Positions 1-46,556 of a DNA stretch of 64,000 nucleotides are shown piece after piece (the first letter of the stretch is position 1; every line of letters begins with the position of its first letter). Source of the stretch: Escherichia phage vB_EcoM_Ozark; the sequence record NC_054927.1; one strand, given 5' to 3'. The notes below the pieces were generated by a model. It saw only the letters and a list, made by a program, of their open reading frames with translations, made no database searches and was not told the origin of the DNA. A program made the position numbers and the translations under genes.

Positions 1-35
1 ATCCTTCTGAACCAAAATTAGTCTATGCTGCTAAT

Positions 36-536
36 ATGATGACAGTTTCTACGAAATACGCTAAACGCAACAATAAAACTTTCGGTTGGATTCGTCGTAA
101 ACTCTGGGAAATAGAAAAGAACAAAGAATTCTCCCAGGAGACACGAAAGAAAATGTCTGATGCAGTAGCTAATAAAGCAAGACTAACTTGTCCTCATTGC
201 GGTAAGTCTGGATTAAGCGGAAATATGAATCGTTGGCATTTTGATAACTGCCCAAATCACCCTAATCCTAAAGTTAGACCACCAATGTCTAAAGAACACA
301 GAAATAATATCTCAAACGGGCTTAAAGCAATCGTTCTTGAAGAAACATCCTGCGAATTCTGCGGAATGATAGGCAAGAAATGCGTTATCGCAGCGCATAG
401 AAATTTCTGCAAGAAAAATCCAAATGGACGCAAGAAAACTGAAAAGACTGGTACTTGCGTCCATTGCGGTAAAGTTACCACTTTCGGAAATTTATCAAGG
501 TGGCATAATGATAACTGTAAATATAAACCTAGCTAA
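36..536 (+). CDS. Cys/His-rich zinc-ribbon repeat protein; reading frame is open back to the window edge, so it may be the C-terminal part of a longer protein
   Basis: 166-aa plus-strand ORF with three Cys-rich modules (CPHCGK..NRWHFDNC, CEFCGM..HRNFC, CVHCGK..SRWHNDNC); no in-frame stop between position 3 and the ATG at 36; no catalytic motif recognised. Confidence 0.4.
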   Translation: MMTVSTKYAKRNNKTFGWIRRKLWEIEKNKEFSQETRKKMSDAVANKARLTCPHCGKSGLSGNMNRWHFDNCPNHPNPKVRPPMSKEHRNNISNGLKAIVLEETSCEFCGMIGKKCVIAAHRNFCKKNPNGRKKTEKTGTCVHCGKVTTFGNLSRWHNDNCKYKPS

Positions 537-2217
537 TCTTAGCTAAACTAAATCTACCAACTTTTTCCATTTGAATATGCTGACCATATTCTTGTGGGTC
601 ATGGTCTTTATGTGAAATTATGAAGAAGTTGGTATCCTTCAAACCATCTAAAATTTTAGCTACATTTTTAATACCTTCAGCATCAAATGCACCGTCATAC
701 ACTTCATCAAGAAATAAACAACTTATTTTAACACCTGAAACTTTTTCAGCAATATCACGCCAAGTAAATAAAAGAGCAATATCAATTCGTGCTTTTTCAC
801 CTTGACTAAATGAAGCATAACTAAAATCTTCACGACCACGAGATTTAATTGTCTCATTAAATTCTTCATCTAATGTAAACACATAATCCGCTTCCATTAT
901 TTTAAGATAATGGTTAATTTGCTTATTAAATAATGGAATGTACTTTTTAATAATAGCACCTTTAATACCAGAATCTTTGAGCATATCAGTCAAAATTCCT
1001 CGGTGGTATTTTTCCATTACTAAATTAGTTTTTGTCTTAACAATTTTATCAAGTTCTTCTTGAAGCAGTGCTATTTCATCAGCATGGTCAATAAACTCAG
1101 AAGATGCTTTTTCTATAGCTGCTTTAACTTTTTTGGCTTTATCTACCGTCGTGATTAGAGATTGCTTTTTATTGCGAATATCATTTGCCAACGACTGCTG
1201 AGTTTTAATATTATCTCGGTATTCATCAACAAGAACTTTTAAATTATCACGGTGTGTTGAAAGCTGTTCAAACGAATGCGTACATTCAGAAACTTTATCT
1301 TTAATTTTAGAAACAACTTTATCACCGGAACTTAATTGTGACAGGCAGGTTGGACATAATCCACCTTCGTGATACATATTAATGACTTTATTGTACGAGT
1401 CAATTTTTGATTTAATTAAAACTGCTTCTTGACCGATTTTATTAAATGCATCAGTCGGGTCTTCATCTAAAACAATATTAACTAATCTTTCATTAGCTTC
1501 TTCTATTTCCGATTTTAGCGTTCTAGCTTCTTTTGCCAAATCATCATACATATTTTGTAGACGAGTAAGGTTGTCACCAGTTAATTTTTTCTGGCGTTCA
1601 ACGTTATCATTATATATTTTAATTTGTTGGATAATACTATCTTTTTTAACATCAAGCACTTGGTTTTGTGAATTTAATTCACGTATTAGTGCTTTATTAA
1701 GCTTATCCATTTCAGCTAATGTTCCTACCTCAAGCAGGTCTTCCACAAGCTTTCTTCGCGCAGGGGTCGACAAACCCATGAAAGGGGTATACCCTGCTGT
1801 ACCAAGGACAACAATCTGCTTGAAACTGGCATATGACATTCCGATAAGCTGTTCAAATTCTGCTTGGAAATCTTTACTGCTGGCAGATTCATTAAGACGT
1901 GTACCGTTAACGGTGATTTCGAAAACGTTCGGTTTTTGTCCTCTTTTGATATAGTACTTTTTCTCATCATATTCCATCCACAGTTCAACTAAAAGTTCTT
2001 TCTTATTTGTGCTGTTTATTAATTGACCTTTCTTTACATCACGAAATGGCTTTCCAAAAAGCCCAAATGTGATGGCTTCTAACATAGTAGACTTACCACC
2101 GCCATTTCGTCCAGTGATAAGAGTTTTTTGAACCTTATCTAATTGAATGTCAATAGGATTTCCACCTACTGACATTATATTTTGATACCTAACTCGGTTT
2201 AGTTTAAAATTCTTCAC
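529..2217 (-). CDS. 46: Recombination endonuclease subunit gp46 (Rad50/SbcC-like ATPase)
   Basis: 562-aa ORF; N-terminal Walker A GRNGGGKST; long coiled-coil middle; C-terminal LFLDEVYDGAFD Walker B/D-loop region; size matches T4 gp46; first codon appears to be GTG. Confidence 0.9.
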   Translation of the reverse strand: MKNFKLNRVRYQNIMSVGGNPIDIQLDKVQKTLITGRNGGGKSTMLEAITFGLFGKPFRDVKKGQLINSTNKKELLVELWMEYDEKKYYIKRGQKPNVFEITVNGTRLNESASSKDFQAEFEQLIGMSYASFKQIVVLGTAGYTPFMGLSTPARRKLVEDLLEVGTLAEMDKLNKALIRELNSQNQVLDVKKDSIIQQIKIYNDNVERQKKLTGDNLTRLQNMYDDLAKEARTLKSEIEEANERLVNIVLDEDPTDAFNKIGQEAVLIKSKIDSYNKVINMYHEGGLCPTCLSQLSSGDKVVSKIKDKVSECTHSFEQLSTHRDNLKVLVDEYRDNIKTQQSLANDIRNKKQSLITTVDKAKKVKAAIEKASSEFIDHADEIALLQEELDKIVKTKTNLVMEKYHRGILTDMLKDSGIKGAIIKKYIPLFNKQINHYLKIMEADYVFTLDEEFNETIKSRGREDFSYASFSQGEKARIDIALLFTWRDIAEKVSGVKISCLFLDEVYDGAFDAEGIKNVAKILDGLKDTNFFIISHKDHDPQEYGQHIQMEKVGRFSLAKIS

Positions 2218-2477
2218 AAAAGATTCCTTTTAATGTATCTTTTAGACCATTCTATCATATCATCATAATCTAAAAAGTATTCATCAAATTCAGCCATGCA
2301 AATAACACCTTGTGCTGCTTTTGATGTGATATAAATTATTCCAACATATCTAGAATCTTCTTCGGTATAATCAATGTTTGCTATGAATTCATCATTAATG
2401 TCAAATGTCGAAAACTTCACAGTATGCATCCTTAATACAAGATACAGCCATATCTCGCAATGATTTAGGTGTGTCAT
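2214..2477 (-). CDS. Hypothetical small protein (position of T4 46.1)
   Basis: 87-aa ORF overlapping gene 46 start by 4 nt, operon orientation. Confidence 0.4.
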   Translation of the reverse strand: MTHLNHCEIWLYLVLRMHTVKFSTFDINDEFIANIDYTEEDSRYVGIIYITSKAAQGVICMAEFDEYFLDYDDMIEWSKRYIKRNLL

Positions 2478-2664
2478 TATCTAAAATGTTGAAGTTAAAA
2501 GATACAGCCCAATCTGTACAGACCGTAACTTTTTTAATACAATTATCTTCAACTTCTAGTGGTTCAAACCAGTATTCAATAATTTCTTTATGACCAATAT
2601 CATCTTTTACTTCACATTCAAAATGCTGACTCATCATAACATTTTTAAATTCATCAAAAGTCAT
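2401..2664 (-). CDS. Hypothetical small protein (position of T4 46.2)
   Basis: 87-aa ORF; stop overlaps gp47 start; 77-nt overlap with the downstream ORF so one start is probably internal. Confidence 0.4.
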   Translation of the reverse strand: MTFDEFKNVMMSQHFECEVKDDIGHKEIIEYWFEPLEVEDNCIKKVTVCTDWAVSFNFNILDNDTPKSLRDMAVSCIKDAYCEVFDI

Positions 2665-3680
2665 TGTGTTGCCTCTACATATAACTGATTTGCATATTGA
2701 ATAAGTGCTTCACGATCAGAATCAGTGATGTCTGGAATTGCATTAATATACTCTTCCATCAATGTCTGAAGCGATTGAACTTCAACTTCTTCACTGTCAT
2801 CTGACTCGACAGAGTTATCAATCTTTGACACAACTCGTAATGAATGCACAACTTTCTCTAGTTCAGATTCGAACTTCGTCAGATTTTTGTCTACTTCAGT
2901 TACTATAACACGTACTGATAGATTTGTAAAATCTTTATAGTCAATTTTTCCTTTGAATGGATAATGAATTCTACGATGCCAGGTAGTATTGTTTGGAATA
3001 AATTCCATTCGTTCTGTTTCTGTGTCAAACATCCAGAACCCACGAGGGTCATTCTCGTCACCTGCAGTTAGTGTCCATGGTGTCCCAATATATCTGACGT
3101 TTGCAGCCTCAGAAATAGTATGGAAGTGACCAGACCACACTTCTTTATAAGTCTTAAGGAAATCAGGTTCAAGACCATGAGATTTCATTCCTTTATAAAA
3201 ATAAAATCCGTTCAGTTCCCAGTGACCAACACAAAAAGAAGCAGATGAAGTTTTAATATGTTCAAGAATTTCACCAGTATTTTCTTCGCACATCCAAGGA
3301 ATTAAATCAATCAAACATCCGTCAAAATCTACTGTAGTAGGCTTATCATATACTTTAACATTAGGATATTTAGCCAAAAGCTCAGTAGAAGCATTTGGAG
3401 TTAAAGTATTTTTAAAGTGCATATCATGGTTTCCTACAATAGTATGTAGTGTAATACCAGCATCATCAAGCATTTGAACTATTTCACGAGCGAACTCCAT
3501 AGTTTTATGCGTGATTGCTTTTCGCACATCAAAAATATCGCCGTATTGAATCCATGTAGTAATTCCATTTTTCTTAGAATATTCTATTGCTTGTTTAATT
3601 CCATCCAACTGAATGGATTGAACCCACTCATCATCAGCTTTAACGCCTAAATGCCAATCACCTAAATTTAAAATTTTCAT
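2661..3680 (-). CDS. 47: Recombination nuclease subunit gp47 (Mre11/SbcD-like phosphoesterase)
   Basis: 339-aa ORF; calcineurin-like phosphoesterase motifs (LNLGDWHLG, QYGDIFD, GNHD, GHWE, GHFH); ATG start; adjacent to gene 46. Confidence 0.9.
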   Translation of the reverse strand: MKILNLGDWHLGVKADDEWVQSIQLDGIKQAIEYSKKNGITTWIQYGDIFDVRKAITHKTMEFAREIVQMLDDAGITLHTIVGNHDMHFKNTLTPNASTELLAKYPNVKVYDKPTTVDFDGCLIDLIPWMCEENTGEILEHIKTSSASFCVGHWELNGFYFYKGMKSHGLEPDFLKTYKEVWSGHFHTISEAANVRYIGTPWTLTAGDENDPRGFWMFDTETERMEFIPNNTTWHRRIHYPFKGKIDYKDFTNLSVRVIVTEVDKNLTKFESELEKVVHSLRVVSKIDNSVESDDSEEVEVQSLQTLMEEYINAIPDITDSDREALIQYANQLYVEATQ

Positions 3681-3856
3681 ATATCAAGAACCGTCATTGA
3701 AATGCAAAATAAAATTATTGAAATAAATCCATCTGGAGTGCTAAAGAACCCAATCCAACATGCTTTAGTGAATAGATAAAATGCAAGAAAAAGTATCACA
3801 TATTCAAGAAATATCATTATATCAAACTCCGTATAAAGCTAAAGGGCCGAAGCCCT

Positions 3857-5059
3857 TTATTTTGTAATAATGTCAAACTGTTCTTTAAAGCAGAAGCTTG
3901 AATCTTGATGCTGATACAAAAATTCATAAGCTTTTTCGCGTTCGCGGTCATAAAGAGTTCGGTCAGATGACAGTTCTTTAATACGTTCAAATGTTGATTC
4001 CATGTCATTTTCATCAAACCAAATGATACCGCTATCATGCGAGGTCAAAGGAGTATTATCAACACGGAATTTTAAATTTTCGCCAGTAGATTTCCAAAAT
4101 ACCGGAATTGTTCCACATGCACCAAGCTCGAGATGAGTATATTCTAAAGAACGTTGTAGATATTTTTTATCCAACTTACTCAACTGATAACCAAAACCGG
4201 ATTTACTCATACGTTCAAGCATTTCGCTATTTACATAACGGTCAAGAATTTGCGTTGGCAAATTAGGAGCAATTTTAATTTGGTCTACTTGATGAAGACG
4301 ATAATACTCGTATGGAATTCCTTTTTCTTTAATAGGAATGAACGCTGGAGAACGTTCCAGACCTTCCATAATAGTACTTAGTCCTGCAGGTTTAAGATGT
4401 TTTTCATGAAAATCAAACATCTGATAAAAACCTTTCCATGTAGTCGTACGACCAATCCAACGGTTGATATTCATGTTAATTTCAGAAACATCTTTCCAGT
4501 AGGTTGACCGAACCTTCGCAATATCCATAGGAGGCTGAAAGTTATATACTGTCGGTGCTTCTTCAATATCATCAAACAGAGAAACTGTTTCAGGATACCA
4601 TTCTTTCATCAGAACTTTATTAAAATCACCATTATCAGAATGGCTAAAAATAACATCAGCTCGACGAACAGTTTCTTCTAATCCCAAATTTCGGCGCAAA
4701 GAAAGAGAAGAATGGTCATGTTGATAAACTACAACACGAACAGAAGGTTTAATGTTATCAATAATTTTTTTATAGTTATTAATAGTGTCTTCTTCAACTG
4801 AAGTAGCAGGAACTGAATTTATAATTAGAATATCACAATCATTTACCAGTTTAAGTGTTTTATCGTATTCTTTTGCCAATAAAACCGGAATTGAAAATGA
4901 TTTATAATCATGTGCACAGTTACGAGTAAATGATTTATCTTTAGCATAAACCAAAGTTACTTCATGACCATTTTTAATAAACCAATCACGTTGCTCAAGA
5001 GAAAATTTAGTTACACCGCAACCTTCAAGACCTCGAGCCATAAAAATACATACTTTCAT
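3857..5059 (-). CDS. a-gt: DNA alpha-glucosyltransferase (glucosylation of hydroxymethylcytosine DNA)
   Basis: 400-aa ORF starting MKVCIFMARGLEGCGVTKF; size and position (after gene 47) match T4 a-gt. Confidence 0.8.
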   Translation of the reverse strand: MKVCIFMARGLEGCGVTKFSLEQRDWFIKNGHEVTLVYAKDKSFTRNCAHDYKSFSIPVLLAKEYDKTLKLVNDCDILIINSVPATSVEEDTINNYKKIIDNIKPSVRVVVYQHDHSSLSLRRNLGLEETVRRADVIFSHSDNGDFNKVLMKEWYPETVSLFDDIEEAPTVYNFQPPMDIAKVRSTYWKDVSEINMNINRWIGRTTTWKGFYQMFDFHEKHLKPAGLSTIMEGLERSPAFIPIKEKGIPYEYYRLHQVDQIKIAPNLPTQILDRYVNSEMLERMSKSGFGYQLSKLDKKYLQRSLEYTHLELGACGTIPVFWKSTGENLKFRVDNTPLTSHDSGIIWFDENDMESTFERIKELSSDRTLYDREREKAYEFLYQHQDSSFCFKEQFDIITK

Positions 5060-5474
5060 TTAATATCCTCTTTGTTTTGGTTTATTTTACCAAAAATTTA
5101 TAAAGCAATATAGGAGCCGAAGCTCCTATCCACATAATACGCCATACAGAGGCTCATTAGAACTTTTAAATTTTATGCGCTTATATGTTATAGTTCCTTC
5201 TGCTTTAGCTTTATCATGAGACTCTTTAAAGCGTCTCATCATTTCCTCTTTAGAGGAACGAATTTTATTATAATCTATTTCAGAAGTCTGGGTGTTCATC
5301 TTTCACATTTGCCACCATTTTTTGACTTGATAAGAATCAACCCACACTTTCATATTAGGGTCTGCTCTTACAATAGGAGGATTAACTTCTTTAATTGAAC
5401 TATCATGGTATTCTTTTTCAGAAATTTTCACGCAAAGATGACCATTCAAAGATTCAGTAAATCCTGCATTAATT

Positions 5475-5792
5475 TTAAGACGCTTGAATTTTACGTGTGT
5501 AAGCATCAATCATATCCTCAATTTGCGATCTAGTAGTCTTCCAAAGAATACTGATGAGTTCATCGTTATATGGCTGTTTTAGAATATCCCGACTTTTCTT
5601 GATAGCATATTCGTATTGAGCAAAATTATTATTTTCAGCTGCGATCTGAGCGTGCTTATAAAGACGATTCAGTTCGCGTTTGTTTTTAGACAATAACTTA
5701 TTTGCTTTTCTTTCTGCTTCAAGACGGTTCTTTTCTTCAATAGAAGAAATAAGCTTTTCCACTTCATCATTAATTTCGGGTTTATCAGTCAT
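5475..5792 (-). CDS. Hypothetical coiled-coil protein
   Basis: 105-aa ORF, charged helical sequence, between a-gt and gene 55. Confidence 0.4.
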   Translation of the reverse strand: MTDKPEINDEVEKLISSIEEKNRLEAERKANKLLSKNKRELNRLYKHAQIAAENNNFAQYEYAIKKSRDILKQPYNDELISILWKTTRSQIEDMIDAYTRKIQAS

Positions 5793-5793
5793 A

Positions 5794-6012
5794 TTATTTC
5801 TCTAATATAAAATAAAAATCATCATCTGTTAAATGATACCGATAGTTTAATTCTACACCATTAGATTTAAAAGCGGTATCATACGGATTTTCTGGATCAA
5901 TATCAATGTCAAGAGCTAAAACTTCCCTGAGATACATTTTAAGTAAATAGGGAATAGCTTCAACTTCAGGTATTTCTTCCAAGAATCCGGAGAGGTTAAT
6001 CGTTAGCCTCAT
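5794..6012 (-). CDS. Hypothetical small acidic protein
   Basis: 72-aa ORF immediately downstream of gene 55. Confidence 0.35.
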
Positions 6013-9101: not shown

Positions 9102-9572
9102 TTAATCATGTTTCCACACCCCATCGGTATTTGACCAAAGTCGCTGATTATCTGATCCTCGCCACAGCTTTTTAGTCGGAAGATTTTTCTCATACTTCCC
9201 ATCAATAATAACATCAACATATTTAAGCATTTCTAGTTGTTTAATATCTTCAAACTTATATCCTGTCCACAACCAAATGCTTTTATTGGGATAAAGATTT
9301 TTTACTGTTTGAACTACAGAGTGAATCACGTCTCTGTTATCAGGATAAAGAGGGTCACCTCCGGTTATAGTTAATCCTTCTATATAATCATTATTCAAAC
9401 ATTCAATCAATTGTTCTAGTGTTTCACCAGTAAATGGAATACCATTTCTAGCATTCCATGTTGATTTATTATAACACCCTTCGCATTTATGCAAACAACC
9501 TGTAACGAAAAGAACGGTCCTGCAGCCAGGACCATTAACAAAGCAGCACGGGTATATTCTGTCATAATTCAT
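9102..9572 (-). CDS. nrdG: Anaerobic ribonucleotide reductase activating protein NrdG (radical SAM)
   Basis: 156-aa ORF; Cys-rich N-terminus (CCFVNGPGCRTVLFVTGCLHKCEGC) typical of glycyl-radical activases; directly follows nrdD. Confidence 0.85.
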   Translation of the reverse strand: MNYDRIYPCCFVNGPGCRTVLFVTGCLHKCEGCYNKSTWNARNGIPFTGETLEQLIECLNNDYIEGLTITGGDPLYPDNRDVIHSVVQTVKNLYPNKSIWLWTGYKFEDIKQLEMLKYVDVIIDGKYEKNLPTKKLWRGSDNQRLWSNTDGVWKHD

Positions 9573-10401
9573 TTATATATTTCCAATTATAGCCTTCAAC
9601 ACTTTTACGTTCGCCATTTAAACATTTTAAAATATTTCCTTTGCTAGAAATATTAAAATATTTTGCTGCGTCTGGTATATAATTAAATGTTTTTAAAAGA
9701 ACACCATCTTTATATGCGCCAAATAAATTAAGAGTATATTTTTCTCGAAGACGCTGATGTTTCCTTTTCATAACCTCAGGATTTGCATACGCCAACTTCA
9801 ATGAATTTCTGTGTTTTTCTTTTACTTCAGGTTTTTGCATTGCTAACTTAGTTAGCCTGGAAATTTTATTTCTAACTTCGTCAGTTTTCATTGCATTTGA
9901 CAAATTTAATAAAGTTTTATTTCTAACTTCAGGTTTTTGCATTGCTAACTTAGTTAGTTCTCTATGTCTTTTTCTAAAATCGTCATCCTTCCATATATTT
10001 TTCGATAATTTTGACATAGAGCGGTGAAATAATTCCTTTTCACTGGAATACAATTTAAAAATTTCATCCAATTCATCCGCATTAAATCTATCGGTATTCG
10101 AGTTTATCATTCTATGAAAGGCATAACACATTTTACTATTGCTTGTTTTAGCTAAATAGTAATGAGCTAACGCATGGTCATAATATGACAAATTAACAAT
10201 ATTCCATTTATCTGTTTTATATTCAGGAAATATAGATTTGGGAAGCACGTGATGTGCTTCCGTTTTTCCTTTTATTTTAGGATTATTATAATTTTTTGTT
10301 ATCAAATCAACATATGACAATAGTAAATCATTATTTTCTTCAAATATTAAAGCTAATTTATCATTCACAAAATCGCAAGGATAAAATCTATCATAATTCA
10401 T
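9562..10401 (-). CDS. HNH-family homing endonuclease inserted between nrdD and nrdG
   Basis: 279-aa ORF; HNH core (EAHHVLPKS...NIVNLSYYDHALAH); ATG overlaps the nrdD TGA stop and the 3' end overlaps the nrdG start by 11 nt. Confidence 0.7.
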   Translation of the reverse strand: MNYDRFYPCDFVNDKLALIFEENNDLLLSYVDLITKNYNNPKIKGKTEAHHVLPKSIFPEYKTDKWNIVNLSYYDHALAHYYLAKTSNSKMCYAFHRMINSNTDRFNADELDEIFKLYSSEKELFHRSMSKLSKNIWKDDDFRKRHRELTKLAMQKPEVRNKTLLNLSNAMKTDEVRNKISRLTKLAMQKPEVKEKHRNSLKLAYANPEVMKRKHQRLREKYTLNLFGAYKDGVLLKTFNYIPDAAKYFNISSKGNILKCLNGERKSVEGYNWKYINEL

Positions 10402-14561: not shown

Positions 14562-14951
14562 TTAATCCAAAATATTATTAGGCATTGGTTGAACACTCAC
14601 AAGTTCTTTAAAGAACTCAGTAGAGTCAGGCAATTTAACCATTTCCGGAGCATGCTTATTAAATTTATGTTTACAATGACGGCATTTATATTCAAGCTCT
14701 GGTTTACGCCAGTTAATCAATTGAACTTGTTCAGTACCGCATTCAGGGCAATTAGGAACGTTTTTAGAAGCTCTTTCACGTCGTTCAACCATAGCCATAA
14801 TAGCATCCCATGCTGGAGGTTTAAAATCTAAATCGTCGCAGCCGTGAATCTTTCCACGCATTTCCATATCATCTTCCTCACCAGCCATAATAATTTTAAT
14901 TAAACTGGAATTACTTGAAGCTGCAATGTCTTCTAATAAACGCTTTTTCAT
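14562..14951 (-). CDS. Hypothetical zinc-ribbon protein
   Basis: 129-aa ORF with CPECG...CRHCKHK four-Cys motif. Confidence 0.4.
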
Positions 14952-15877
14952 TTCAATACCTCAATAGCATTACGTAAACCATTTGCTTTTGCATTAAGAG
15001 CTTTTAACAATTTGGTGTGTTCTGCAATTTGGGCTTCAACTTCAATCAAACGGGCATTGAGATATTCGCGTTCTTCACTCAGATTATCAACCTTTTCTAC
15101 TTTAGGCTCTTTTACAACTGTCTTATATGTATTAGGGTTCTTCAGTTTAATTAGAATGCGTGAACTGTATAACATTGAACCATTATCTTCGGTTTCGTCA
15201 TACATTTCCACTACGTCCATAATTTTTAACATCATGCGGAGTTTATAAGACAACGAACGAATAGTTTTGTTGTGCTTATTAATTTCTTTAGCTGTCATGG
15301 TGCCAAGATTACGTGAGTAATAATAAGGAACCTGGATATTAATTAATACTGATGAACCACCTGGCTTGTGTGTTACTTCATCAGCAATAACCCAGTCCTT
15401 AACATGAACTGTATTTGTACGATCATCGCCCGCGGTGAACAGTTTGCGAGCATGCTTAAAAAGCATATTCACTTGGTCATTGAATTGGCAAGCAAATTTA
15501 TCAGCAAATTTGGTTTCAGGAATGGTAGAAAACCAATTAGCCAAATGAGTCTTTTTAACATCATTAACAATAGTAAATTCAACCAAATCGGTTATAGATG
15601 TCTCAGATTTAATAAAGCTCGGCTTCATAAAGTTTTTAATGTTATCGTGAGCTACAGTAGAAGATAACATACGAGAACGTTTAAACCATTCAAGCAAATT
15701 GCCTAACGAATGAGAATAAGCGTTTTGAGTATCTTTACAGATATGATTTTCCTGGCCAACATATTGAAGGAAATCACGAAGAATATTATTGATTACTGCT
15801 CTGTGTCCTATCTGATAATTACGATGTTTAGTAATAAGACTGTCAAAATAATCAATATAATGTTTACGAGTTTTCAT
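14948..15877 (-). CDS. Hypothetical protein with C-terminal coiled-coil tail
   Basis: 309-aa ORF; last ~50 aa heptad-like ([44 protein letters not shown]). Confidence 0.45.
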   Translation of the reverse strand: MKTRKHYIDYFDSLITKHRNYQIGHRAVINNILRDFLQYVGQENHICKDTQNAYSHSLGNLLEWFKRSRMLSSTVAHDNIKNFMKPSFIKSETSITDLVEFTIVNDVKKTHLANWFSTIPETKFADKFACQFNDQVNMLFKHARKLFTAGDDRTNTVHVKDWVIADEVTHKPGGSSVLINIQVPYYYSRNLGTMTAKEINKHNKTIRSLSYKLRMMLKIMDVVEMYDETEDNGSMLYSSRILIKLKNPNTYKTVVKEPKVEKVDNLSEEREYLNARLIEVEAQIAEHTKLLKALNAKANGLRNAIEVLK

Positions 15878-19374: not shown

Positions 19375-19902
19375 TTATGCGAGTACCGTCTTTAACCGTT
19401 CTTCAAACTTCCGAAGAGTATTTTGGCGTTCAGCTCTTTGCTTTTTGTAAGTTTCAATACGCTCTGAAATGAGAGTGTATCGTTCATTTACTGATTCTTT
19501 CATAAAATCAGGAATTTCACGAGAAGCTTTAATCTCATCAAATTTATCAATAACAGCTTGCTCTTCAGCAATTAAGTTATCATACATCAAAATATCTTTC
19601 TTGATGAACTCAATATCTTCTTGAGTTACACGAGATAATTTAGATGCTTTATCCTTTTTGTACTGTTCGTTAGTATCACGAGACCAGTGTAATGTACGAT
19701 TTTTATTCGTATTCTTGTAAATTTCTACAATACCAATCTCATCGATAATAACGATCCAATTCCAACGAGATTTGTAAATTTGTCCTCCGTCAACCGTGAT
19801 TTCACCTCCGATTGAGATGTCATTAAAGAACTTGCTTTGTGCTTCTGATTTAAATTTACCATCGTTGTAATTTACCAGGTTGAAAATATCTTTAGCGTTC
19901 AT
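19375..19902 (-). CDS. Hypothetical protein with helical C-terminus
   Basis: 175-aa ORF directly downstream of an early-promoter element and GGAGG ribosome-binding site. Confidence 0.45.
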   Translation of the reverse strand: MNAKDIFNLVNYNDGKFKSEAQSKFFNDISIGGEITVDGGQIYKSRWNWIVIIDEIGIVEIYKNTNKNRTLHWSRDTNEQYKKDKASKLSRVTQEDIEFIKKDILMYDNLIAEEQAVIDKFDEIKASREIPDFMKESVNERYTLISERIETYKKQRAERQNTLRKFEERLKTVLA

Positions 19903-19924
19903 TTTGTGTTCCTCCGTAGTTGAT

Positions 19925-19960
19925 AGTTGTATAGTACCACAAAGGAACAGTCTTGTAAAC
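19925..19960 (-). promoter_or_regulatory. Early promoter with conserved leader
   Basis: Minus strand GTTTAC-N15-TGG-TACTAT followed by CTATCAACTAC leader and GGAGG. Confidence 0.5.
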
Positions 19961-19962
19961 CG

Positions 19963-20277
19963 CTAAAAGAAACTTCTTTCACAATTTTTTCCACTGAACC
20001 ACGCGCTCACCGCTTTCTTAGTCTCAGGAGCAGTGTTATCCATAAACCATTCAAAAGCAGCCTTTTTATGATTCTGGAGGGCTTCTCGGGCTTTAATCTG
20101 CTCACGGTCTATTAACACTAACATATGAGCCTTTCTTGTCACCATGGGCTTCTTATGATTTTTTGAATACTCCCAATCATTTGTCCATCGCATCGTTGTT
20201 GCGAACTGAAATACTGCTTCTTTAATTTTAGTTTCGTAAATCTCACGAGCCTTTGAGTATAACATCACTACCTCCAT
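19963..20277 (-). CDS. Hypothetical protein
   Basis: 104-aa ORF. Confidence 0.35.
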   Translation of the reverse strand: MEVVMLYSKAREIYETKIKEAVFQFATTMRWTNDWEYSKNHKKPMVTRKAHMLVLIDREQIKAREALQNHKKAAFEWFMDNTAPETKKAVSAWFSGKNCERSFF

Positions 20278-20366
20278 TTACCAGTTTAATTCTAATCATC
20301 TTTTTGATGGCAGTCCATATAATCTATTTCTGAACTGCCTTTTTGTCATAGAAGGCCTCTTATGAA

Positions 20367-21335
20367 TTATTTCAGAAGAGTAACCTCAGCAATTTCTTCC
20401 CAACCGTTTTTGTCGGTCATAATAAAGTCAGCAAGATAAAGTGCAGTACGCAGTGAAACATTGCGTAAACGATTAACATTGACTTTCATCCATGATAATG
20501 CTTTATAAGTTTCTTCATCAGAAAGACCGCGTTTTTGCATCATGTCAGTTGAAAGAATAACATCTTCAACCCTGACCATAATTTCTTCATTAGTGTGAAC
20601 ACCCAAATCTAAATAAACTGAGCGGGAAACTAATGCTTGTAAATGTGGAGCAAGTTTAGTACCACGATCTAATTCGCGGTCAATATCAACGTTTGTGATA
20701 AAAACAATCGTTCCTTTAAATTCAAACTCACGCTCAATGCCTTTTTCTTCTAAGTAAGAAGATGCAGTGCTCCAGCAGACTTTACGGGTCTCTCCAGTGT
20801 CCAGAGCAGCTTTTAGAAGATTAAGAATGTCCATATCAGAGAAAACATCCACATCATCAATCAAAAGGACAGAATTCTCTTCACGATTATTCCAAAGCTG
20901 TTCATAAAGACCGATACCGGAGATTTTACCGTTAATGCTTTTATATTCAATGTATCCAATATCATTTGCTTTATTTAAAGCTTTATCTAAAGAATACGTT
21001 TTACCAATACCTGCCGCACCAGAGATAATTAATGAACGAATGTTTCCGTTAATAATACCATTCGTCATCATTCCCATAACATTAAATCTTTTATTAATGC
21101 GGGTTTTCATATCTTCATACGATTCTTTAACTTCTTCAACTTTTACACCATCATATGAAATGTCTGATTTGTAAACCCAAACACCGCGACGCTTACCGTC
21201 AATTTCAACAAAAACTTTACCATCTCCTTGTGCATCTACCGGAGCATTATCTGGGAACCATTCACCTAAGAGCTCAAAAGTTCCAGAGATTTCTTTACCG
21301 AAGTAGATACCCTTATTGATAGTTACAGTTTTCAT
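20367..21335 (-). CDS. P-loop ATPase (AAA-like)
   Basis: 322-aa ORF; Walker A GAAGIGKT and Walker B-like LLIDDVD; ~100-aa N-terminal domain precedes the ATPase core. Confidence 0.5.
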   Translation of the reverse strand: MKTVTINKGIYFGKEISGTFELLGEWFPDNAPVDAQGDGKVFVEIDGKRRGVWVYKSDISYDGVKVEEVKESYEDMKTRINKRFNVMGMMTNGIINGNIRSLIISGAAGIGKTYSLDKALNKANDIGYIEYKSINGKISGIGLYEQLWNNREENSVLLIDDVDVFSDMDILNLLKAALDTGETRKVCWSTASSYLEEKGIEREFEFKGTIVFITNVDIDRELDRGTKLAPHLQALVSRSVYLDLGVHTNEEIMVRVEDVILSTDMMQKRGLSDEETYKALSWMKVNVNRLRNVSLRTALYLADFIMTDKNGWEEIAEVTLLK

Positions 21336-37029: not shown

Positions 37030-37105
37030 TGGTCGAGGCAGTAGGGATCGAACCTACGACCCAGGACTTAGAAGGTCCTTGCTCTTCCTTCTGAGCTATG
37101 CCCCG
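37030..37105 (-). tRNA. tRNA-Arg (anticodon UCU)
   Basis: Hand-folded cloverleaf: acceptor CGGGGCA/TGCCTCG, D-stem GCTC, anticodon loop CTTCTAA, T-loop TTCGATC, CCA encoded. Confidence 0.8.
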
Positions 37106-37109
37106 TAAT

Positions 37110-37185
37110 TGGGGTGACCGATGGGAGTCGAACCCATGACTACGAGAATCACAATCTCGAGTTCTACCAACTGAACTACGGCCAC
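37110..37185 (-). tRNA. tRNA-His (anticodon GUG)
   Basis: Hand-folded: acceptor 7 bp, anticodon stem CGAGA/TCTCG with loop TTGTGAT, T-loop TTCGACT, discriminator C, CCA encoded. Confidence 0.7.
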
Positions 37186-37299
37186 ATTAATACCTACTCC
37201 AATAATCAAGATGTCTTCACACGAAATTAAGAGAAGAGTGATCAGTTCAACCCCTATAATCGCGTCAAGTAGATATTAATGTGACAGTTGTCACAAATT

Positions 37300-37374
37300 T
37301 GGCGGACGTGATAGGATTCGAACCTATAACCAATCGCTTAACAGGCGATCGCTCTGCCATTGAGCTACACATCC
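37300..37374 (-). tRNA. tRNA-Asn (anticodon GUU)
   Basis: Hand-folded: anticodon stem ATCGC/GCGAT, loop CTGTTAA, T-loop TTCGAAT, CCA encoded. Confidence 0.75.
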
Positions 37375-37378
37375 AAAT

Positions 37379-37465
37379 TGGTGGGGAGTGGTGGAGTCGA
37401 ACCACCCGAGTCGCAATGACAATGGATTTACAGTCCACACCGCTACCTCTACGGGATAACTCCCC
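37379..37465 (-). tRNA. tRNA-Tyr (anticodon GUA), long variable arm
   Basis: Hand-folded: exact 7-bp acceptor GGGGAGT/ACTCCCC, anticodon loop CTGTAAA, ~15-nt variable arm, T-loop TTCGACT, CCA encoded. Confidence 0.7.
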
Positions 37466-37478
37466 TTAATTCTTAATT

Positions 37479-37553
37479 TGGTGGCCCTGGGTGGAATTGA
37501 ACCACCATCTGGCGATTATGAGTCGCTTGCTTGAACCTTCCAGCTACAGGGCC
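37479..37553 (-). tRNA. tRNA with anticodon CAU (elongator Met or Ile with modified C34)
   Basis: Hand-folded: exact acceptor GGCCCTG/CAGGGCC, anticodon loop CTCATAA, T-loop TTCAATT, CCA encoded. Confidence 0.7.
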
Positions 37554-37554
37554 T

Positions 37555-37630
37555 TGGTGCTGATTGACGGAATCGAACCGCCGACCTTCTCATTACAAGT
37601 GAGTTGCTCTACCTACTGAGCTAAATCAGC
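37555..37630 (-). tRNA. tRNA-Thr (anticodon UGU)
   Basis: Hand-folded: exact acceptor GCTGATT/AATCAGC, anticodon loop CTTGTAA, T-loop TTCGATT, CCA encoded. Confidence 0.75.
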
Positions 37631-37635
37631 AAAAC

Positions 37636-37725
37636 TGGCGGAGGCGATAGGATTTGAACCTATGAGTCGCCGGAGCGACTGCCGGTTTTCAAGACCGGTG
37701 CATTAAACCACTCTGCCACGCCTCC
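37636..37725 (-). tRNA. tRNA-Ser (anticodon UGA), long variable arm
   Basis: Hand-folded: exact acceptor GGAGGCG/CGCCTCC, anticodon stem CCGGT/ACCGG with loop CTTGAAA, variable-arm hairpin GTCGC/GCGAC, CCA encoded. Confidence 0.8.
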
Positions 37726-37727
37726 AG

Positions 37728-37801
37728 TCTCCATACAAGGATTTGAACCTTGGACCTCCTGATCCCAAATCAGGCGCTCTACCAAACTGAGCTACACGGA
37801 G
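37728..37801 (-). tRNA. tRNA-Pro (anticodon UGG)
   Basis: Hand-folded: anticodon stem CCTGA/TCAGG, loop TTTGGGA, T-loop TTCAAAT; CCA not encoded. Confidence 0.75.
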
Positions 37802-37811
37802 TAAATTAAAT

Positions 37812-37885
<74 letters not shown>

Positions 37886-37890
37886 AAATT

Positions 37891-37977
37891 TGGTGCGAGA
37901 AGTGGGACTCGAACCCACAAGGAAATCATTCCGCAGCATTTTAAGTGCTGTGCCTTTACCAATTTGACCATTCTCGC
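37891..37977 (-). tRNA. tRNA-Leu (anticodon UAA), long variable arm
   Basis: Hand-folded: exact acceptor GCGAGAA/TTCTCGC, anticodon stem CAGCA/TGCTG with loop CTTAAAA, T-loop TTCGAGT, CCA encoded. Confidence 0.8.
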
Positions 37978-37983
37978 GTTATA

Positions 37984-38592
37984 TTATTTATTACGTGAAA
38001 AAGACTGTTCTATCAATTCTGGACACTTTCGTTCTATCCATTTTCTAGCTTTTTGTGGGCTTATACCTATTATTTTAGCAGCTTTACTAACCCATCCAAA
38101 TTTAGAATAATCGATTTTAACTAATTCTTCGTAAATTTCATCAGTTAAAATCTTTTCATTAATATTTACCAGTAAATGATATAATTTGTTATCATTAGCA
38201 ATTTTAATGAATCTTTTATAGTTTCCGCCTTTACTTAAACCTAATGAAGTAATTGCAGATGATATAGTAGCCGAATTTAATAATGCGTTTAAAATTTCTT
38301 CATCACTAACATTATAACGCTTTTTATTATTTTTAATATTTTTACCAGCAAAAGTATCAGTTTGCGAATGACAGTTTGGACATAATAATCTTAAATTTGA
38401 TTTAAGATGATTTTTGTTATTTCCATCAATATGGTCTAATTGCAGAACAATATGCTTATTTTGCCATTTTGAAATTTTACAAATTGCACACTCATATGGA
38501 AAAATATTTTCTTTTATTATTTTGTCTTTCAGCTTTCCTGTACTAAAATTTGGATGTTTTCCTTCAAAAATTTCAGCTAATTTAGTATCCAT
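37984..38592 (-). CDS. HNH-family homing endonuclease abutting the tRNA cluster
   Basis: HNH/zinc motif LQLDHIDGNNKNHLKSNLRLLCPNCH plus CAIC; ORF track begins at TTG (38616), first ATG at 38592 gives 202 aa; stop lies 6 nt from the tRNA-Leu 5' end. Confidence 0.65.
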   Translation of the reverse strand: MDTKLAEIFEGKHPNFSTGKLKDKIIKENIFPYECAICKISKWQNKHIVLQLDHIDGNNKNHLKSNLRLLCPNCHSQTDTFAGKNIKNNKKRYNVSDEEILNALLNSATISSAITSLGLSKGGNYKRFIKIANDNKLYHLLVNINEKILTDEIYEELVKIDYSKFGWVSKAAKIIGISPQKARKWIERKCPELIEQSFSRNK

Positions 38593-38702
38593 AATATGAT
38601 TCCCAATTATTAACAAAGGCTCTCAAGCAAGAACCCTTGATGATAGAGGGTATTAATCAGTGCGATATGAGTTAATAATAACAAATAATTCTTAAAGCAT
38701 AT

Positions 38703-41002: not shown

Positions 41003-41715
41003 TATAGTACCTTTAGTGTATTTTTTAATTTTAGAAAAAGTTCTTCAAGAGAACCATCGTTTGTAATTACTAAATCGCCATCACGAATTGGCAATCCAGC
41101 TTCTGTAATATGTGTATCATTGGATTTTTGACCAGGACGAACTACATGAATTACTGTAGCACCCATCGCCCTAGCCGCATCCATTTCATGATCTTGACGA
41201 GTATCAGGAACGATATAATAATCATAACCTGAGTTAAATTTATCAAGATAATCTAAAGCAAATAATTTTACCCAATACATGCGGTCGAAGTTATTAACAA
41301 TCAAATCCGTACCTAGGGCTTGCATCAGACGACGGACTGACCATTGATCTTCAATATTATTTATAACGTCAGCAATCTTGTTAAATGCTACGAAATTAAC
41401 TGCGTCATCAAAAACAAACACGCCTTTAATTGGGCTTTTACTATTAAGATAGCAAAATGCTTGTTCCATAATCGTAATTACTTCTAATTTAGTCAGATTT
41501 AAATTAGTCTCGCGATCATAGTCAATTCCTTCAAACTCTTTACGAGTTAAACAAGGATAGTCAGTGTTTGCTGCAAATACGCCCCATGCATAAGCCAATG
41601 CATCTTTAATAGGACCAGCAAGTTGATATTTAACTGCAGAATAATTATTCATAATAAAATCTGCAGTAGTATCTTTTCCACTACGCTTTACACCGCTTAA
41701 AAAGATTAGTTTCAT
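41002..41715 (-). CDS. 1: Deoxynucleoside monophosphate kinase gp1
   Basis: ORF track begins at TTG (41754); the ATG at 41715 with GGAG ribosome-binding site gives a 237-aa protein MKLIFLSGVKRSGKDT (P-loop). Confidence 0.85.
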
Positions 41716-41764
41716 ATGTTTCTCCTCAAATTTAGTTAAGATTATAACACACAAAACTGAAGCA

Positions 41765-42295
41765 TTAAACTTCTGCTATAATTTTTCCATCTTTTTCTAC
41801 TTGAAAATACGTATAAGGAATCGTTGCTGTGCATACTAAAGCTGGGTCTGAATCTTCCGTGTAGCTAAATTCTACTTCAGACAGGTCAGAAACCCAAGGC
41901 TTATAAAAATTTATTGACATCACGATTTCAGTTTTACTATTATCTAAAATGTAAAGCGTAATGTATTCAGGACCTGTTTTTTGGGCAGTATTTTCGCCTG
42001 TAAGATAGTTACTAGTTCCTAGCATCCATTCATACATTCCTATCCACGACTTAAGTTCTTCATCAACTATAAATCTCACAATGAGTGGATCATACTCAAA
42101 TGTAACACCTGGACGTTGTGCTCGGCCCAGTCCAAACGGCCCAGTCACGGTATCAGTAACAGGTATTCTAATTCCTGGAATAGGAACTGACTGAGCATTT
42201 AAAGTAAAAGCAGATGTAGTATTACTATGTGGTATTGATACTACAAAGTTAGTTGTATTTGCTTGGTTAAAAATTTGTTGCAGAGCTTGCGACAT
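41765..42295 (-). CDS. 3: Tail completion / sheath stabiliser gp3
   Basis: ORF track begins at TTG (42376); the ATG at 42295 with GAGGA ribosome-binding site gives 176 aa (MSQALQQIFNQ...), the T4 gp3 size. Confidence 0.8.
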   Translation of the reverse strand: MSQALQQIFNQANTTNFVVSIPHSNTTSAFTLNAQSVPIPGIRIPVTDTVTGPFGLGRAQRPGVTFEYDPLIVRFIVDEELKSWIGMYEWMLGTSNYLTGENTAQKTGPEYITLYILDNSKTEIVMSINFYKPWVSDLSEVEFSYTEDSDPALVCTATIPYTYFQVEKDGKIIAEV

Positions 42296-42401
42296 ATATT
42301 CCTCATAATGCTTTATAACTGTTGGTGGTATAATGGGTCTAAGTCCCTTCCATTCAATTCCATTTAGAACAAACAACAGAAAAGAATGGAAGATAATAGA
42401 A

Positions 42402-46037: not shown

Positions 46038-46556
46038 ATGAGCGCTGATTTAGGAGAATCCATGGAAGGTTCTTCTATCGACGTCACCTTTACCGCTCAA
46101 TTAGAAACAGGTGAAACGTTAGTATCTATAAATATAACTAGTTACGAAGAAACTCCTGGGGTTTTAGTAGAAGAAAATCGCTTATATGGAACATATGAAT
46201 CTGTGTTTGGATTTGGAAATGACGCGTTGAAATATCGTTTAGGCGATGAATTTAAAACTGCTGCTTCATGGGAAGAACTTCCTACTGATTCTGATACTCA
46301 GTTGTATTTGTGGAAAGCTCCTCAAAACCTCCAGAAGACCTTCACTTACGAAGTAACATTAATATATGACTACCAAGAACAAAGTGAATCTGGAGGTTCT
46401 GGCAGTAATTCTAGGTCATCTTCTGATACTACTGAACCGACAGATCCTCCTGCTCCAGTAAGAAAAACTCTCGTTAAAAATTACACAAAAACTATAGTTG
46501 GAAATTGGAGTCGTTGGGCTAATAAACTGAGAAGCTATGTATATGAGAGGTCATAA
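46038..46556 (+). CDS. 5.1: gp5.1-like protein
   Basis: ORF track gives 45999-46556; the ATG at 46038 lies just after the gp5 stop; start is uncertain. Confidence 0.5.

Follow-up and report, generated by a model that had tools for sequence, protein, structure and literature searches.

The 64,000-nucleotide stretch of Escherichia phage vB_EcoM_Ozark analysed here (NC_054927.1; hereafter the window) is part of a T4-like (Tequatrovirus) genome and is oriented as in the T4 GenBank record. At its left edge lies a plus-strand reading frame that an earlier note, made from the letters alone, described as a Cys-rich protein with three zinc-ribbon-like modules, possibly the DNA-binding C-terminus of something longer, for example a free-standing endonuclease. 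What is this gene, how far does it extend, and what would it do where it lies? We conclude that window 1-536 is very probably the 3' part of a free-standing Mob-type HNH homing endonuclease gene (HEG) located between genes 45.2 and 46 and antiparallel to these neighbours (Table 1). It is the only credible plus-strand gene ahead of the late genes at ~43.7 kb, as the note had seen for the first 43 kb: before that point, any further plus-strand ORF of 100 aa or more is TTG-started and lies inside or across a longer minus-strand ORF, and the sole other plus-strand CDS in the equivalent 44 kb of the RB32 RefSeq record encodes a 30-aa hypothetical protein.

Table 1. Features at the left edge of the window. 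Positions are those of the window; residue numbers are those of the 238-aa protein; ligands are given in brackets.
Feature	Position	Strand	Sequence or residues	Remarks
HEG, 3' three quarters	1..536	+	codons 62-238 plus stop	RB32ORF054w family
End of HEG codon 61	1-2	+
NUMOD3-like helix 1	129..173	+	FSQETRKKMSDAVANK, residues 104-118	precedes finger 1; model helix 106-117
Finger 1	189..251	+	CPHCGKSGLSGNMNRWHFDNC	C-x2-C-x12-H-x3-C (C124, C127, H140, C144)
NUMOD3-like helix 2	285..326	+	MSKEHRNNISNGLK, residues 156-169	precedes finger 2; model helix 158-169
Finger 2	351..410	+	CEFCGMIGKKCVIAAHRNFC	C-x2-C-x11-H-x3-C (C178, C181, H193, C197); divergent copy
Finger 3	456..518	+	CVHCGKVTTFGNLSRWHNDNC	C-x2-C-x12-H-x3-C (C213, C216, H229, C233); aligns with I-TevIII finger 2
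Convergent overlap, HEG 3' end and gene 46 3' end	529..536			8 nt; gene 46 stop is the complement of 529-531
Right-flank segment distinguishing carriers from non-carriers	529..610			counterpart of the T4-type spacer and last ~25 codons of gene 46
Gene 46 (SbcC/Rad50-like recombination nuclease subunit)	529-2217	-		right-hand neighbour of the HEG
Gene 46 3' block linked to the HEG	537..~747			15-36 bases per 100 nt different from HEG-less phages
Gene 47	2661-3680	-
a-gt	3857-5059	-

The reading frame continues to the left of the window

Frame 3 of the plus strand is free of stops from base 3 to the TAA at 534-536, giving 177 codons in the window translation, in agreement with the earlier observation that it stays open to the window start; the mechanically listed ORF (36-536, plus strand) has 166 aa counted from the ATG at 36. 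In 300 shuffles of window 1-5000 the longest stop-free run averaged 95 codons and reached a maximum of 177. The length of the frame by itself is thus only marginally beyond chance, and the case for a real gene rests on homology, namely the PHROG 655 match given below and the copies in public phage genomes, of which 57 are near-identical and many more are diverged.

A megablast search with window 1-2300 matched 714 T4-like records, 57 of which span the whole query at 97.7-98.9% identity. Across these near-identical phages (RB32, RB33, RB51, 310Ecol104PP and others) the gene has 237-238 codons, the RB51 copy encoding 237 aa and the RB32-type copies 238 aa. In RB32 (NC_008515) and 310Ecol104PP (OR062946) the coding sequence spans 717 nt (238 aa), its start lying 181 nt to the left of window base 1. 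In relatives that are 98.9% identical at the DNA level, the frame continues a further 61 codons upstream to this ATG, and no in-frame stop is met just outside the window. The 310Ecol104PP protein is 100% identical to the window translation over residues 62-238, so that the ATG at 36 corresponds to an internal Met-Met (residues 73-74) and not to a start; this MM pair is conserved in the family alignment. From these comparisons the true start of the gene lies left of the window, together with its HNH domain and a late promoter, the latter two being predicted for Ozark itself from relatives at 98.9% identity. No interruption of the frame is seen in the RB32, 310Ecol104PP, RB51 and Ac3 copies or in the window's own fragment, the other natural copies having been checked solely as near-full-length DNA matches.

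These data refute a stand-alone 166-aa zinc-ribbon protein that begins at ATG 36 and has no nuclease domain, and we give this idea next to no chance. The listed ORF does open at that ATG, and several Pfam zinc-ribbon families have matches, sub-threshold only, in family members. However, the frame is open upstream of this codon, and every relative examined extends to the ATG 181 nt left of the window, complete with an AAGGA site and a late promoter. In the annotation of this window edge, ORF 36-536 should accordingly stand as a truncated HNH HEG rather than as a 166-aa 'zinc-ribbon protein'.

The N-terminal domain is of the Mob HNH type

As the earlier note had suspected in proposing a longer endonuclease, the 61 residues that lie outside the window hold a nuclease motif, namely the HNH motif ESHHIIPR...SNLVDLTPEEHYVAH, also written ...YTESHHIIPRCLNGSDDASNLVDLTPEEHYVAHQ... 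in the relatives. Residues H26, H27, N41, H50 and H54 are invariant among 13 full-length relatives (47-64% identity to the first member), and these residues sit at or very near the positions of the I-TevIII catalytic residues H26, H27, N39 and H48, which were assigned by mutagenesis (PMC1865063). The His...Asn...His signature of HNH (His-Me finger) nucleases is thus present in the full-length relatives, in the part outside the window. An AlphaFold model shows the HNH core as a beta-beta-alpha unit, with strands 24-27 and 42-45 and helix 47-60.

Sequence searches place the protein in the Mob HNH family (MobA-E, PHROG 655). The window fragment matched PHROG 655 ('homing endonuclease') at 4.5e-24, and by BLASTP the full protein matched T4 MobB (4e-30, 44% over the N-terminal 126 aa) and, in a full-length alignment, T4 MobE (8e-34, 34% identity). 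The Pfam HNH model (PF01844) scored 16.9 bits, under its cut-off of 21.4, with nine of the 13 members matching at E<=0.01. PDB profile matches to a group II intron maturase, McrA and Cas8f-HNH (E 0.02-0.9) all fell on the HNH motif, and a Foldseek search with the model returned no match at E<=0.001. Furthermore, a profile search of 1.84 billion cluster representatives retrieved 23,102 proteins at E<=1e-3, mostly via residues 1-120. The N-terminus is Mob-type as judged by sequence, and we predict by homology that the protein is a nuclease with a target site.

Three CCHC fingers in a basic C-terminal string

We then examined the Cys/His modules of the C-terminal part. All 12 of their Cys/His ligands are invariant among the 13 family members at 47-64% identity. 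They follow the CX2CX12-13HX3C pattern of the fingers of I-TevIII both in spacing, with x11 in finger 2, and in homology. Fingers 1 and 3 have 13 of 21 residues in common; finger 2 aligns with I-TevIII finger 1 (CDFCGHIGKGPGFYLKHNDRC) and is followed by a common KxNPN linker. Over 66 aa that include this linker, fingers 2-3 match the I-TevIII finger pair at 36% identity (E 5e-8). In the AlphaFold (AF2) model (mean pLDDT 79; pTM 0.36, a low value being expected for beads on a string), each of the three modules is built as two short strands and a helix bearing the H-x3-C ligands, finger 1 for example having strands 121-123 and 130-132 and helix 133-143. The sequence and the model together identify the three modules as CCHC beta-beta-alpha zinc fingers of the I-TevIII type.

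The number of modules given in the earlier note therefore stood, and their assignment to zinc ribbons did not. We rejected the ribbon because the ligands are C, C, H and C, the last two of them on an alpha-helix, with no second CxxC knuckle, a point that also tells against the stand-alone ribbon protein. Weak Foldseek matches were to C2H2/C2HC (classical or C2HC) finger arrays and HNH domains and included no ribbon. The CCHC finger reached the gathering score of no Pfam model, and it was the published work on I-TevIII that settled the identification.

The fingers are interspersed with two NUMOD3-like helices. Pfam NUMOD3 (PF07460) matched residues 104-116 at E 0.012 and 16.0 bits, under the cut-off of 20.4, and a precomputed PF07460 annotation is present on more distant homologues. 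The second helix, which has no Pfam match of its own, is similar to the first and to the NUMOD3-like repeats of MobE. The protein as a whole carries a net charge of +22, +16 of which falls in residues 101-238.

Each I-TevIII finger binds approximately one zinc ion, and disruption of either finger weakens DNA binding and cleavage (PMC1865063). By analogy, we infer that each finger of the HEG protein would bind one zinc and that the protein would bind DNA, in line with the DNA-binding role proposed in the earlier note; the invariant ligands and the basic charge lend this support.

Mob-type homing endonucleases and some of the GIY-YIG type commonly carry the finger, and yet a Pfam model for it is missing. 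The 184 proteins that we retrieved carry from 0 to 8 copies of the motif, and in two of them, one annotated with PF01541, the motif stands behind a GIY-YIG domain. A bolder reading, which we offer tentatively and think unlikely, is that the CPHC-x12-[WY]HFDNC finger is a DNA-reading module that no curated model yet describes and that has been shuffled widely among phage homing endonucleases. It would stand in 1 to 8 tandem copies behind HNH or GIY-YIG domains, and its copy number and order might determine target specificity module by module, like beads on a string and loosely comparable to eukaryotic C2H2 arrays. If this were true, the three-finger HEG and the one-finger MobE would represent a change of specificity by finger gain or loss, and the finger could be a compact building block for engineered nickases.

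Insertion site, distribution and linked flank

Compared with T4, 786 bp stand in place of 72 bp at the junction of genes 45.2 and 46, where the T4 spacer measures 55 bp. The T4 segment that is replaced runs from the start codon of 45.2 across the spacer into the final codons of gene 46. In consequence, 45.2 gains a GTG start, gp46 ends in ...RFSLAKIS as opposed to ...RFTVMV in T4, and the two convergent genes overlap at window 529-536. Similar 3' overlaps with gene 46 are found in Klebsiella and Enterobacter relatives.

The gene is present, as a single copy, in 58 of the 714 records, and the site is empty and uninterrupted in 580. It is thus inserted between conserved genes and present or absent among close relatives, as expected for a Mob-type HEG. 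We also considered an intron- or intein-encoded element and rejected it, since the insertion lies between genes and leaves both 45.2 and 46 intact; scanning it against Rfam revealed no group I or II intron, the only two matches lying far below their gathering scores.

To the left of the junction, carriers and non-carriers match at ~99-100% identity. On the right, the 3' block of gene 46 is diverged (Table 1), and beyond ~747 the divergence between carriers and non-carriers drops to ~1%, as measured against five sampled non-carriers. At >=95% identity this block occurs in exactly 58 records, namely the 57 natural carriers and vB-Eco-KMB22, and no record has it at 90-95%. KMB22 is a recombinant without the HEG: its empty spacer and the ~25 codons that end gene 46 are of the T4 type, and the carrier haplotype takes over within a conserved island encoding ISHKDHDPQEYGQH. 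Most of the linked block is therefore kept in KMB22 and is separable from the HEG, and only the spacer with the final ~25 codons of gene 46 sets every carrier apart from every non-carrier examined. We regard window 529-610 as our leading candidate for the target site in its self-immune form. The 45.2/46 site occurs in nature as empty, as occupied and as the KMB22 recombinant, and these three states could serve to locate the target of a Mob-type enzyme that is so far uncharacterised.

Relatives with 42-64% identity are found at this same position, likewise antiparallel, in Dhakavirus FB, Pseudotevenvirus EBPL and two Klebsiella phages. The copy in Roth67 is split into two ORFs. Among the natural variants synonymous codon changes outnumber non-synonymous ones (12 versus 6 between RB51 and 310Ecol104PP), which, together with the uninterrupted frame, fits a functional protein.

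These observations bear on a different view of the gene, in which it is a resident relic, no longer mobile and inactive or barely active, that persists because its deletion would damage genes 46 and 45.2. The architecture of the junction lends this some appeal: the HEG overlaps gene 46 by 8 nt, its 3' end holds the gene 46 stop and the remodelled gp46 C-terminus, its 5' edge adjoins the GTG start that 45.2 has acquired, and host signals embedded inside HEGs favour their retention (PMC2988022). Occupation of one slot in one orientation in distant genera would likewise suggest a long, perhaps vertical, residence rather than active homing, and the split Roth67 copy and the MobB-type enzymes without demonstrated activity (that of MobB is entered as 'ND'; PMC2988022) point the same way. 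Nevertheless, the 57 natural copies are near-full-length DNA matches with open frames in RB32, 310Ecol104PP, RB51 and the window fragment, the catalytic and metal-binding residues are all invariant across 47-64% identity, and synonymous changes outnumber non-synonymous ones in the natural variants. In addition, the distribution is patchy within one genus, the linked block has the sharp limits that recent gene conversion typically leaves, and KMB22 demonstrates that the HEG can be absent with normal T4-type termini. We therefore think it improbable that the gene is a relic, and judge this less likely than a homing HEG.

Expression signals

A late-promoter box of the T4 type, TATAAATA, precedes the HEG ATG by 41-44 nt in the RB32-type phages, FB and Roth67. 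The leader is conserved, with an AAGGA-type ribosome-binding site before the ATG; the two most distant members, EBPL and CP-p-KP-21068, keep just the TAAATA core of the promoter. A small hairpin around the ribosome-binding site recurs, with a stability no greater than that of shuffled sequences.

A late promoter and leader kept across diverged members, together with the conserved location across genera, could also indicate that the protein has been co-opted, for instance as a late DNA-binding regulator or autorepressor, as an excluder of co-infecting relatives, or through its gene as a source of late antisense RNA across gene 46, into which HEG transcription runs. In that case the fingers might be used more for contacts between proteins than for reading sequence; I-TevI is also an autorepressor (PMC2988022), and the finger region of I-TevIII also dimerises (PMC1865063). 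Against this, ~92% of close relatives do without the HEG, which is thus not needed, the leader showed no operator-like repeat and no significant structure (z from -0.7 to +0.9), and marker exclusion would be the population-level face of homing and no separate function. Co-option thus seems to us a very slim prospect, and less likely than the homing HEG.

Proposed mechanism and comparison with known systems

RB32 annotates the gene as RB32ORF054w (YP_802996.1; 'homing endonuclease, similar to mobB'). This gene and its orthologues in RB33, RB51, RB68, slur07, 310Ecol104PP and others are the same gene in the same slot and orientation, with 98-100% protein identity over the window part, and nothing substantive differs in the window copy other than that it is cut at codon 62. 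The HEG itself is therefore already known, having been in RefSeq since the RB32 genome, and its finger type was characterised in I-TevIII in 2007; our literature search found no paper on the RB32ORF054w-family protein specifically. Petrov et al. 2010 counted two 'mob-like HNH' HEGs in RB32 (PMC2993671), a pair that fits RB32ORF054w and RB32ORF146c, the two annotated mobB-like genes of that phage.

A functional parallel is T4 MobE, which is encoded by a free-standing gene between nrdA and nrdB and, like the HEG protein, combines an N-terminal HNH domain with NUMOD3-like repeats and a C-terminal CCHC finger, CPHCGKKVNKGNALRWHYDKC. MobE has a single finger, homologous to finger 3, against three in the HEG protein; mobE points the same way as its neighbours and shares a transcript with nrdA, whereas the HEG is antiparallel and has its own late promoter; and the insertion sites and presumed targets differ, being the end of gene 46 for the HEG and nrdB for MobE. 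MobE nicks a conserved gene beside its own insertion site, with polymorphisms protecting the carrier (PMC2790892), and we have adopted this as the model for the HEG.

I-TevIII, an HNH endonuclease encoded in the group I intron of RB3 nrdB, carries two 'CX2CX12-13HX3C' fingers, and its C-terminal ~75 aa, the finger region, form a dimer interface that enables a double-strand break (PMC1865063). In contrast to the HEG, it is intron-encoded and has two fingers rather than three, and outside the HNH motif and the fingers the two proteins are unalignable. The N-terminal similarity to T4 MobB noted above is the basis of the 'similar to mobB' annotation. MobB is a free-standing HNH HEG located between a-gt and a-gt.2 in T4, and it differs from the window gene in lacking CCHC fingers, in its place elsewhere in the genome and in being co-oriented with its neighbours; the ORF listing of this window contains no mobB beside a-gt.

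Although the reversed orientation is unusual, as the earlier note remarked, it is conserved across the RB32ORF054w family, and T4 segD offers an earlier example of a T-even HEG whose transcription opposes that of the adjacent genes (PMC2988022). The gene segD is also free-standing, between genes 23 and 24, but it is of the GIY-YIG family and no dedicated promoter has been found for it, whereas the HEG is of the HNH type and has a conserved late promoter.

Taking these systems as guides, we propose that the homing HEG would be transcribed late in infection from its own promoter. The very basic C-terminal string, consisting of a NUMOD3-like helix, a finger, a second helix and two further fingers, would wrap a long asymmetric DNA site, with each finger presumably carrying one zinc ion as in I-TevIII. 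The N-terminal HNH domain would nick the DNA as MobE does, and both strands could be cut if the finger region dimerises like that of I-TevIII. The probable target is the allele without the HEG, at or beside the 45.2/46 junction in a co-infecting phage, where recombinational repair from HEG-bearing genomes would copy in the HEG and the adjoining end of gene 46, whose diverged sequence may shield the carrier from self-cleavage.

The Ac3 record

Finally, the record of phage Ac3 (OK040907.1) contains the same HEG at 79% identity in nucleotides and yet 98% in protein. Of its 222 degenerate codons, 139 differ synonymously, and gene 46 shows the same pattern. All gene coordinates are common to Ac3 and RB51, and over 30 kb the differences comprise one stray SNP and two sharply bounded blocks, one beginning in the third codon of the HEG and the other in a small gene annotated as an antitoxin. 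Within the blocks the changes are biased to G/C-ending codons that are apparently preferred in E. coli, and the GC content rises from 0.338 to 0.373. These segments look like synthetic, codon-optimised recoding rather than evolution, and we therefore left Ac3 out of the selection arguments. The record is unsuitable for evolutionary rate estimates in the region of the HEG and gene 46.

A recombinant at the 45.2/46 junction and polymorphism at the end of gene 46

The phage vB-Eco-KMB22 is a natural recombinant at the 45.2/46 junction, in which an empty 45.2/46 spacer and the last ~25 codons of gene 46, both T4-type, are followed by the gene 46 haplotype otherwise linked to the homing endonuclease gene (HEG). 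The crossover lies within the conserved island GCTGACCATATTCTT.... This allele represents either a precise loss of the HEG or an allele that pre-dates its invasion, and experiments to map the HEG target could make good use of it.

We compared window positions 537-747 with the corresponding region of five HEG-less phages (L003, which is T4, and L009-L012). Among Tequatroviruses that are otherwise ~99% identical, the final ~70 codons of gene 46, from the Walker B/D-loop to the C-terminus, fall into at least three distinct haplotypes (T4-type, KarlGJung-type and HEG-linked). Many of the differences between these haplotypes are non-synonymous, and this end of the gene is therefore a local polymorphism hot spot adjoining the HEG slot. 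At the other end of gene 46, between it and 46.1, RB51, Ac3, Aplg8 and LF73P1 carry ~866 extra bp, which are left without annotation in the RB51 RefSeq record and may be the source of the second 'homing endonuclease' annotated in Aplg8. The window lacks this segment, and 46.1 there overlaps the start of gene 46 at 2214-2217.

Orthologues of the HEG and their leader

In Klebsiella phage Roth67 the annotation divides the orthologue (64% identity) into two ORFs; the gene is apparently disrupted, which suggests a copy decaying within the homing cycle. The leader running from the late promoter to the HEG ATG (compared at 3790-3834 in L002, an RB32-type copy, and at 2471-2515 in loci L006 and L007, the latter from Roth67) is conserved as TTTATC..TCGC.GTATCA among members sharing 60-64% protein identity. 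This leader can fold into a small hairpin that places the Shine-Dalgarno sequence within its loop or close by; the arm sequences vary from member to member, and the hairpin energies were no better than those of shuffles.

Other homing endonuclease genes and the tRNA cluster

Between nrdG and nrdD the window carries a second gene for an HNH homing endonuclease of the Mob type. This slot is filled by mobC in T4 and left empty in RB32 and RB51, where nrdG and nrdD abut. A six-frame motif scan found no CCHC zinc finger in this gene. Next to tRNA-Leu the window has a further HNH endonuclease gene where RB32 has tRNA-Gln, and ARAGORN found no tRNA-Gln at 35-41 kb of the window. The tRNA cluster also lacks the segB that both T4 and RB32 carry between tRNA-Arg and the CAU tRNA. 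Likewise, the window has no counterpart of T4 mobB beside a-gt (3857-5800), of the RB32 seg-like gene between nrdC.9 and nrdC.10 (19900-20400) or, at 41700-42400, of the mob-like gene that separates gene 3 from gene 2 in RB32. The HEG set of the window is unlike those of both T4 and RB32, and illustrates the patchy distribution of HEGs in close relatives.

Coordinates of features in the window and in related phages
Feature	Record	Position	Details
Second Mob-type HNH gene	window	9562-10401 (-)	279 aa; PHROG 655 at 2.3e-36
HNH endonuclease gene	window	37984-38616 (-)	PHROG 14736 at 6e-124; abuts tRNA-Leu
tRNA cluster (n=10)	window	37030-37977	Arg, His, Asn, Tyr, Met/Ile-CAU, Thr, Ser, Pro, Gly, Leu
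Recombinant junction	vB-Eco-KMB22 (L017, OR539217.1)	1425-1800	
HEG orthologue	Roth67 (L007)	2501-3235	ORFs 2501-2770 and 2834-3235
Extra 46/46.1 segment	RB51 (L016)	locus 14360-15226	
Extra 46/46.1 segment	Ac3 (L015)	14603-15432	misc_features
Extra 46/46.1 segment	Aplg8		hit H28
Ac3 block 1	Ac3	record 31966 to ~35230	from HEG third codon across gene 46 and the ORFs after it
Ac3 block 2	Ac3	record ~46150-46314	inside small CDS labelled 'antitoxin'

Apparently recoded blocks in the Ac3 record

Over 30 kb, Ac3 (OK040907.1 20000-50000) and RB51 (NC_012635.1 20000-50000) are identical except for one stray SNP and two blocks, both of which have sharp edges and contain changes that are almost all synonymous. 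These changes are biased towards G/C-ending codons (CTA/TTA to CTG, ATT to ATC), raising GC from 0.338 to 0.373, and the favoured codons appear to be those preferred by E. coli. The blocks look like codon-optimised synthetic recoding within what is presented as a 'natural phage' sequence, and dN/dS estimates that included them would be corrupted.
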